Shown here in pieces: positions 60,001-61,765 of a stretch of DNA of 61,765 nt. Each line of letters starts with the position of its first letter. Position 1 is the stretch's first letter. The DNA comes from Stx2 converting phage I. Position numbers: made by a program. The stretch is taken from sequence record AP004402; one strand, given 5' to 3'.

Positions 60001-61765
60001 GATGGGTGATGGTTTCCTTTGGTGCTACTGCTGTCTGTTTGTTTTGAACAGTAAACGTCTGTTGAGCACATCCTGTAATAAGCAGGGCCAGCGCAGTAGC
60101 GAGTAGCATTTTTTTCATGGTGTTATTCCCGATGCTTTTTGAAGTTCGCAGAATCGTATGTGTAGAAAATTAAACAAACCCTAAACAATGAGTTGAAATT
60201 TCATATTGTTAATATTTATTAATGTATGTCAGGTGCGATGAATCGTCATTGTATTCCCGGATTAACTATGTCCACAGCCCTGACGGGGAACTTCTCTGCG
60301 GGAGTGTGCGGGGATAATCAAAAACGATGCACACCGGGTTTTCTCATTTTTCACGAGATGGGAGCGATTTCCCGCGAAGCCGCCTGTCCGGTGCGGTGGT
60401 GGAAGAAACCGGATAAAACAACCGCATTGTGCAAATATCGATCAAATATGGTGCTGCTGTGTGAAATCTGAAAAATCACAGCGGTCATTATGCATCAGTT
60501 TTTAACACAGGACGTCAGAACGTGACATGGCAAAGCTGGACTGGAAAAAGCTGGAGCAGGCATTCCGACGCGAACATGCCGAAACGGGAATAACATTACT
60601 GGACTGGTGCCGGAAGAAAAAGATTAATTACAACACCGCCAGAACCCGTATAAAAATGGGCAAAATCGATCATGAAATTGATCATAAAACCGATCATGAA
60701 ATCGATCATGACATCTCAGATGAAGAACCCTGCAATGACGCGGGTTCCGGCGATGAAAAATGTGCAAAAAACTCTGAAAAAAACTGCGCAAATTCGGCAG
60801 AAACGAAACGGATTCGTGGTTCCCGACTTTTACCACCTTCAAACGCTTTTTCTCAGCGAAACACCCACGCCGTAAGACACCGTGGATATGCGAAGTATCT
60901 TGAGGCAGATAACCTCATGGATGATGCGTCCGACATGGTGCTGTTCGATGAACTGGTGTTCACCCGGGCCCGCGCACTTTCAGTAACTAAGGCACTTAAA
61001 GGGATGTTCGCCGACCTGGAAGAGGCAACTGACGTGGAAACCCGTGTTGCTCTTTACGACAAAATACTCAAAGCTGAACAGGCCCTTGACCGGAATATTG
61101 CCCGTATCGAGTCAATTGAACGCTCATTGCTGACGCTGGACGTCCTGGCTGAGACAGCACCAAAACTTCGTGCTGACCGGGAAAGAATCAACGCCGCCAG
61201 AGATAAACTCAGAGCTGAAACCGATATTCTGACCAACCAGCGTCGGGGCGTTGTTACGCCTGTCAGTGACATCGTGTCATCGCTGCATGAAATGAGTAAT
61301 TCGGGGAGACTGGATGACATTCCGGAAGAATGAACCGCGATGTGATGAGCCGTCAGAAATGACCGAGGCTGAACAACGTCTGTTCATCATGACTAAACTG
61401 AGCAATCCCTGGTGGCGGCTCAATCATCTCTACAAAATACAGAACGAAAAAGGTGAACTGGTCACCTTCAGAATGCGACCGGCGCAGCGCCAGTTGTTCC
61501 GGAGCATGCACAATAAAAATATTATCCTGAAAGCGCGCCAGCTGGGATTTTCCACAGCCATTGATATTTATCTTCTCGACCAGGCATTATTCATTCCGCA
61601 TCTCAAATGCGGGATCGTCGCTCAGGATAAACAGGCTGCCAGTGAAATTTTCCGCACAAAAATTGCTGTACCGTTTGATCATCTCCCTGACTGGCTGAGA
61701 GCCTCATTCACCATCGTTGAACGTCGTAGCGGTGCCAGCGGTGGCTATATCCTGTTTGGTCACGG

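Follow-up and report, generated by a model that had tools for sequence, protein, structure and literature searches.

The large terminase gene of Stx2 converting phage I reads across the two ends of its sequence record

The sequence record of Stx2 converting phage I (AP004402) holds 61,765 nucleotides, and this whole stretch, at its full length, is the window analysed here. Both of its ends lie inside an open reading frame. This raises the question of what those ends are: the physical ends of the phage DNA, the edges of a prophage excerpt, a genuine break in a gene, or simply the place at which a circular map was opened. An earlier note, made from the sequence alone, had proposed that a terminase gene (terL) starting at 61359 is open to the final base of the record and carries on exactly in frame into positions 1 to 1255, and translation of the joined ends bears this out. 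From the ATG at 61359, the frame stays open for 407 nt (135 codons plus 2 nt) up to base 61765; once the ends are joined, it runs through base 1 to a TGA at 1253–1255 and yields a product of 553 aa. The peptide across the junction is ...ILFGHG-SSIQVATSF..., as the note had it, with the codon GG/C (Gly) spanning the record ends, and neither a stop codon nor a frame mismatch was found there on re-translation. Among the six frames, a single pair was both long-open at the two ends and phase-compatible, extending 470 nt back from the end (with 2 dangling nucleotides) and 1,252 nt from the start (with 1 leading nucleotide).

Comparison with related genomes places the two ends side by side. The last and first 1,000 nt of the window have adjoining coordinates in phage 933W (29014–30013 and 30014–31013) and in VT2-Sakai (28055–29054 and 29055–30054). 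A 600-nt query across the junction was uninterrupted in 422 of the 424 complete E. coli genomes that hold it; it matched at 99% identity or better in 310 E. coli genomes, and the feature beneath it is annotated as 'terminase'. Because tail and head map adjacently in both phages and are contiguous in 422 of 424 genomes, the continuity of the frame is not a product of chance, and terL is confirmed to read across the two record ends.

One could still suppose that terL is truly split or disrupted, as a pseudogene or as two genes, and that its continuity is an artefact of joining. The same record does carry a frameshift in another essential gene, that of the major capsid protein (described below), which lends this idea some footing; however, the joined terL is base-perfect, with 0 missing and 0 extra bases against 933W, VT2-Sakai and hundreds of genomes. 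Contiguity on that scale refutes a true split, to which we assign next to no probability.

The gene itself probably begins further upstream than 61359. The reading frame opens after a stop codon at 61293, and its first ATG, at 61314, lies 15 codons upstream of 61359. The equivalent of this ATG is the start used in four annotations: L0113 in 933W (29562–31268), the RefSeq/PGAP coding sequence (1,707 nt; WP_000143988), ORF C89 of AP005154 and ORF B87 of AP005153. Given its Shine-Dalgarno context and its use in all four, ATG 61314 rather than 61359 is the likely start codon. The gene is thus join(61314..61765,1..1255), 1,707 nt encoding 568 aa, and its product matches 933W L0113 at every one of the 568 positions (100% identity). 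The product of about 553 aa given in the earlier note holds for a start at 61359 and falls short of the full gene, which takes in the upstream start. Upstream of terL lies terS and downstream the portal gene, and at each boundary the stop of one gene overlaps the start of the next; the terS stop codon (61331–61333) overlaps the start of terL by 20 nt (Table 1).

Table 1 Features at the record ends and at the attachment site, in window coordinates
Feature	Position	Strand	Remarks
XhoI site CTCGAG	1..6		First base of the record; arbitrary origin
terL, 3' part	1..1255	+	Last nt of codon 151 to stop codon TGA (1253-1255)
Portal gene	1255..3399	+	PHROG_156, 1.8e-254; start codon overlaps the stop of terL (TGATG)
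Single att core GTTTCAA (attP)	31749..31755		The ends of the 933W prophage record meet here
Integrase gene	31777..33111	-	Adjoins attP; 100% identity, single copy
terS (268 aa)	60527..61333	+	100% identity to 933W L0112; PHROG_370, 4.8e-125
GGGGAG, Shine-Dalgarno-like	61303..61308	+	Ends 5 nt upstream of ATG 61314; read from the sequence
terL, 5' part	61314..61765	+	Codons 1-150 and first 2 nt of codon 151
Internal in-frame ATG (Met16)	61359..61361	+	Start given in the earlier note; poor Shine-Dalgarno context

To place the product among terminases, we aligned the joined protein to terminase families, as the earlier note had suggested. The 553-aa form matched PHROG_2, 'terminase large subunit' (E = 1.5e-53, aa 19–552). 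A sequence search of the PDB returned T4 gp17, matched in both domains over two stretches (E = 1.5e-7), and gp17 of T4 or RB49 was the top match whether the query was the whole protein or either half alone. The curated model collections gave a different result: no terminase family was found at E ≤ 10 in Pfam (Terminase_1/3/6, GpA and so on) or in NCBIfam at E ≤ 0.01, and TerS and the portal protein, scanned against NCBIfam, likewise returned no terminase family. As Pfam and NCBIfam are silent, the assignment rests on PHROGs, the PDB and identity to 933W, which together support reading the protein as a large terminase. The models in these two collections thus miss a widespread Stx-phage terminase, and automated annotation must turn to PHROGs or to similarity with 933W.

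Candidates for the motifs expected of such an enzyme came from HMMER alignment with T4 gp17 and from sequence patterns. A Walker A-like (P-loop) region, KARQLGFST (aa 73–81, nt 61530–61556), aligns with T4 SRQLGKTT; Phe occupies the canonical Walker A Lys position and a Lys stands at the start of the loop, which suggests a deviant loop whose Lys lies at its N-terminal end. Lambda gpA also has a deviant Walker A, KSARVGYS, and the TerL pattern K-x4-G-[FY]-S resembles it. A Walker B-like sequence, CIIFDE (aa 199–204, nt 143–160), follows the hhhhDE pattern only and lies outside the stretch aligned with gp17. In the C-terminal half, D385, E441 and D534 (motifs at nt 692–715, 857–883 and 1136–1162) align with D401, E458 and D542 of T4 gp17, the catalytic residues of its nuclease. 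The record is cut between the Walker A-like and Walker B-like sequences of the putative ATPase domain, and the cut position within terL coincides with no gene boundary or plausible signal.

The layout of the whole window was then read against the 933W prophage record (AF125520/NC_000924), which runs from the attL core to the attR core. By blastn, window positions 1–31755 correspond to 933W 30014–61670, and positions 31749–61765 to 933W 1–30013. The 7 bp by which the two blocks overlap are precisely the att core GTTTCAA, which is annotated in 933W both as the attL core (1–7) and as the attR core (61664–61670). Between them the blocks account for every base of the window, which leaves no room for host DNA. 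In lysogens, the attachment site and the terL junction behave in opposite ways, the one split and the other continuous: a 601-nt stretch around attP was intact in only 6 of 217 matching E. coli genomes, the others (for example the EDL933 chromosome) breaking at the core. The window ends share no direct repeat of at least 8 nt, and the record is therefore exactly one unit length. By this arrangement, the window is the phage genome in its excised state, a circle closed through one attP beside int and then opened anew in terL.

The earlier note had held that the record is a whole phage genome cut inside terL and not a prophage flanked by host DNA. Both parts are upheld, the first by collinearity with 933W through a single att core and the second by the internal position of that core and the lack of unaligned sequence. 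A prophage excerpt that carries host DNA on one side or on both, its end ORFs in phase by coincidence, is something that could in principle occur, since a phase match is a 1-in-3 event, and nothing else was found in its favour. In such an excerpt, one would not expect two blocks that cover all bases and meet at a single att core, an integrase gene beside attP rather than at a window end, lysogens that split the attP stretch and keep the terL junction continuous, or a joined protein 100% identical to a contiguous 933W gene. Collinearity with 933W and the two junction patterns in lysogens refute it, and we give it hardly any weight.

Intact attP–int junctions do occur outside phage records. In an EDL933 assembly, a 212-kb circular 'plasmid unnamed1' (NZ_CP124742.1, 56871–60471) holds the intact junction, with four matching places, and is more likely to be assembled phage DNA, excised or concatemeric, than a plasmid. 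Small 'plasmid' records of 50–63 kb in other O157 assemblies carry an intact attP too.

Gene content agrees with a single complete genome. Each of the 51 genes of 933W that we tested was present as one full-length copy, in line with the earlier statement that every functional module occurs exactly once, with the caveat that the major capsid gene bears a 1-nt deletion. The single-copy set comprises int/xis, exo/bet/gam, cIII/N/cI/cro/cII, O/P, the nin genes, Q and stx2A/B, as well as nanS-p, S/R/Rz/Rz1, bor, terS/terL/portal, the head and tail genes, lom and hok. Upstream of stx2, ARAGORN found three tRNA genes (52865–53116). It called the one at 52865–52940 a tRNA-Met (CAT), and the 933W record has it as ileZ, an AUA-reading tRNA-Ile that is presumably lysidine-modified.

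Two further features of the window stand apart from the junction. A 580-bp direct repeat, 98% identical between its copies at 29835–30414 and 36174–36753, lies in ead/Ea22-like genes (933W L0140 and L0069). The copies bracket the attP–int–xis segment, and recombination between them would delete the integration module. The second is the frameshift in the major capsid gene (4588–5801; 933W L0116), which matches Pfam Phage_capsid_3 (1.5e-88) and PHROG_334, 'major head protein'. A 1-nt deletion in a G run, GGGG to GGG at about 5508–5510, truncates the 404-residue frame a little beyond residue 315. This deletion was seen in none of 178 related public phage records; the capsid gene of AP005153 has a different 1-nt break, and that of AP005154 is intact. 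The lesion would be lethal if real, and sequencing errors are the likeliest explanation of the breaks in the window and in AP005153. Much less probably, the deletion is real and is either tolerated through frameshifting or the mark of a defective phage.

Why, then, does the record open where it does? Its first base is the first base of an XhoI site, CTCGAG, one of six in the genome (1, 21555, 29093, 39727, 49922 and 59532), and the chance of a randomly placed origin meeting such a site at its first base is about 1e-4. Two further records, AP005154 (Stx2 converting phage II) and AP005153 (Stx1 converting phage), were deposited as circular and share the first 30 bases of the window, including CTCGAG; the last bases of AP005154 match those of the window too. 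Both carry an origin-spanning coding sequence, ORF C89 as join(62255..62706,1..1255) and ORF B87 as join(59415..59866,1..1255). Because these siblings are circular, begin at the same CTCGAG and annotate a coding sequence across it, the cut is a coordinate convention of the depositors and not biology; we infer that the choice of origin stems from a restriction map or a clone boundary. Elsewhere in this phage group, some 190 further records have other first bases, which lie at att ends, at the ATG of terL or at still other points.

A further alternative is that the window ends are true physical ends within terL, made by cleavage at a cos or pac site or marking where a direct terminal repeat stops. 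In tailed phages, packaging signals are usually located within or close to the terminase genes, and one unrelated record, that of phi191 (KF971864), also ends inside terL, 133 nt away. Against this, the origin sits exactly on the first base of CTCGAG and is common to only three records of one series, of which the siblings are circular with joined coding sequences, whereas some 190 records of the group begin at other places; no terminal repeat is present, and the terminase belongs to a class that has been assigned to headful packaging, which leaves no unique ends. We therefore consider physical ends improbable, and we are just as doubtful of the related proposal that the shared origin lies at or near the real start of a packaging series, in a pac cleavage region within terL of 933W-type phages.

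The mode of packaging bears directly on this choice. Concatemeric DNA is recognised and cut by TerS and TerL; once docked on the portal, TerL uses ATP to translocate the DNA and then makes a second cut. In TerL phylogenies, the '933W type' is a headful class (PMC7317114, PMC6029569), and relatives with 933W-like head genes have terminally redundant, circularly permuted DNA (PMC9144972). The TerL of the window clusters with the '933W-type' class, being 100% identical to L0113; for Stx2 phages, the literature yielded class-level statements and no direct mapping of the ends. Packaging of this phage by headful is thus probable by analogy with its class, and the circular sibling records, the heterogeneous starts of other records and the lack of a terminal repeat are consistent with it. 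Since headful DNA assembles as a circle, there would be no natural ends and depositors had to choose an origin; the lack of unique ends under the presumed headful mode would likewise explain why public records start at many places.

We therefore return to the circular map. It is very probable that the window is one unit of the circular map of a 933W-type Stx2a phage (Traversvirus, Sepvirinae), linearised at the XhoI site in codon 151 of terL. According to its sequence, TerL would combine an N-terminal ASCE ATPase with a C-terminal RNase-H-like nuclease, distantly similar to gp17. Together with TerS it would cut replicative concatemers and pump the DNA through the portal, and headful (pac) packaging would then give terminally redundant, circularly permuted virion DNA. 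A circularly permuted genome would in turn assemble as a circle without natural ends, leaving the origin arbitrary. No biological event takes place at the junction.

The observation of a gene across the record ends is correct and already known, as the spanning ORF is annotated in the sibling records. Its value is one of bookkeeping, and it brings no new biology at the junction; recognizing the record as circular prevents the annotation of two truncated genes, a call of a prophage fragment and a missed terminase.

AP004402 has been described as Stx2phi-I of strain O157:H7 Okayama O-27, and its NanS-p, of 645 aa, as the same protein as in 933W (PMC10462455); the NanS-p of the window agrees with this form. 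N and O/P of phage I have been reported as 933W-like, as they are in the window, and 'Stx2 converting phage I' has been typed with cI7 and Cro11 variants distinct from those of 933W (PMC3430580). At odds with that typing, cI and cro in the window (43824–44831) are 100% identical to 933W, a discrepancy that may reflect the choice of ORFs in PMC3430580.

Among known systems, the closest in the matter of the origin are AP005154 and AP005153. Their origin-spanning coding sequences have the same 452 + 1,255 nt split as terL in the window, and their first 1,255 nt are identical to it or differ by 1 nt. They are nevertheless different phages, from strain Morioka V526, of 62,706 and 59,866 bp and with other early regions, and their depositors label the spanning ORF only as a 'hypothetical protein'.

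Phage 933W carries the same genes in the same order, including the terS–terL–portal arrangement in which stops and starts overlap, and its L0113 (AAD25456; WP_000143988, 'terminase') lies mid-record, since that record is written from attL to attR. The genome of the window is a close variant of it, with 99.97% identity across the late half and 99.4% across the early one. Almost all of the divergence is concentrated in the lysis segment (57500–60000; R, ant and Rz/Rz1), where amino acid identity ranges from 86 to 96% (R 96%, ant 94.7%, Rz/Rz1 about 86%). In this part Stx2a_WGPS9 is closer than 933W (99.8% over 45001–61765), and the lysis segment is a typical mosaic patch. The tail-fibre gene (7951–9984; 933W L0121) exceeds its 933W counterpart by about 96 nt, with 95% protein identity; blastn blocks overlap at a repeat in this gene (about 9078–9119), pointing to a difference in the copy number of an internal repeat.

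T4 gp17 (PDB 3CPE, 3EZK and 2O0H; the RB49 nuclease is 3C6A) is the best match of solved structure for both halves of TerL and is a headful packager too, at a very great distance (E = 1.5e-7 for the whole protein, about 0.003–0.01 per domain); the P-loops compare as KARQLGFS in TerL and SRQLGKT in T4.

With lambda, the likeness is confined to part of the genome. The TerL of the window shows no detectable sequence match to lambda-type terminase families (gpA/Nu1, which serve cos packaging), and its class is assigned to headful packaging, unlike that of lambda. The description of the phage as lambdoid therefore stands for the regulatory and early regions and does not extend to the terminase. Lambdoid features extend over the functions of regulation, replication, recombination and lysis (N, cI, cro, cII, O, P, Q, S, R and Rz), whereas the virion module of the phage is podovirus-like, as the taxonomy line (Traversvirus) has it.
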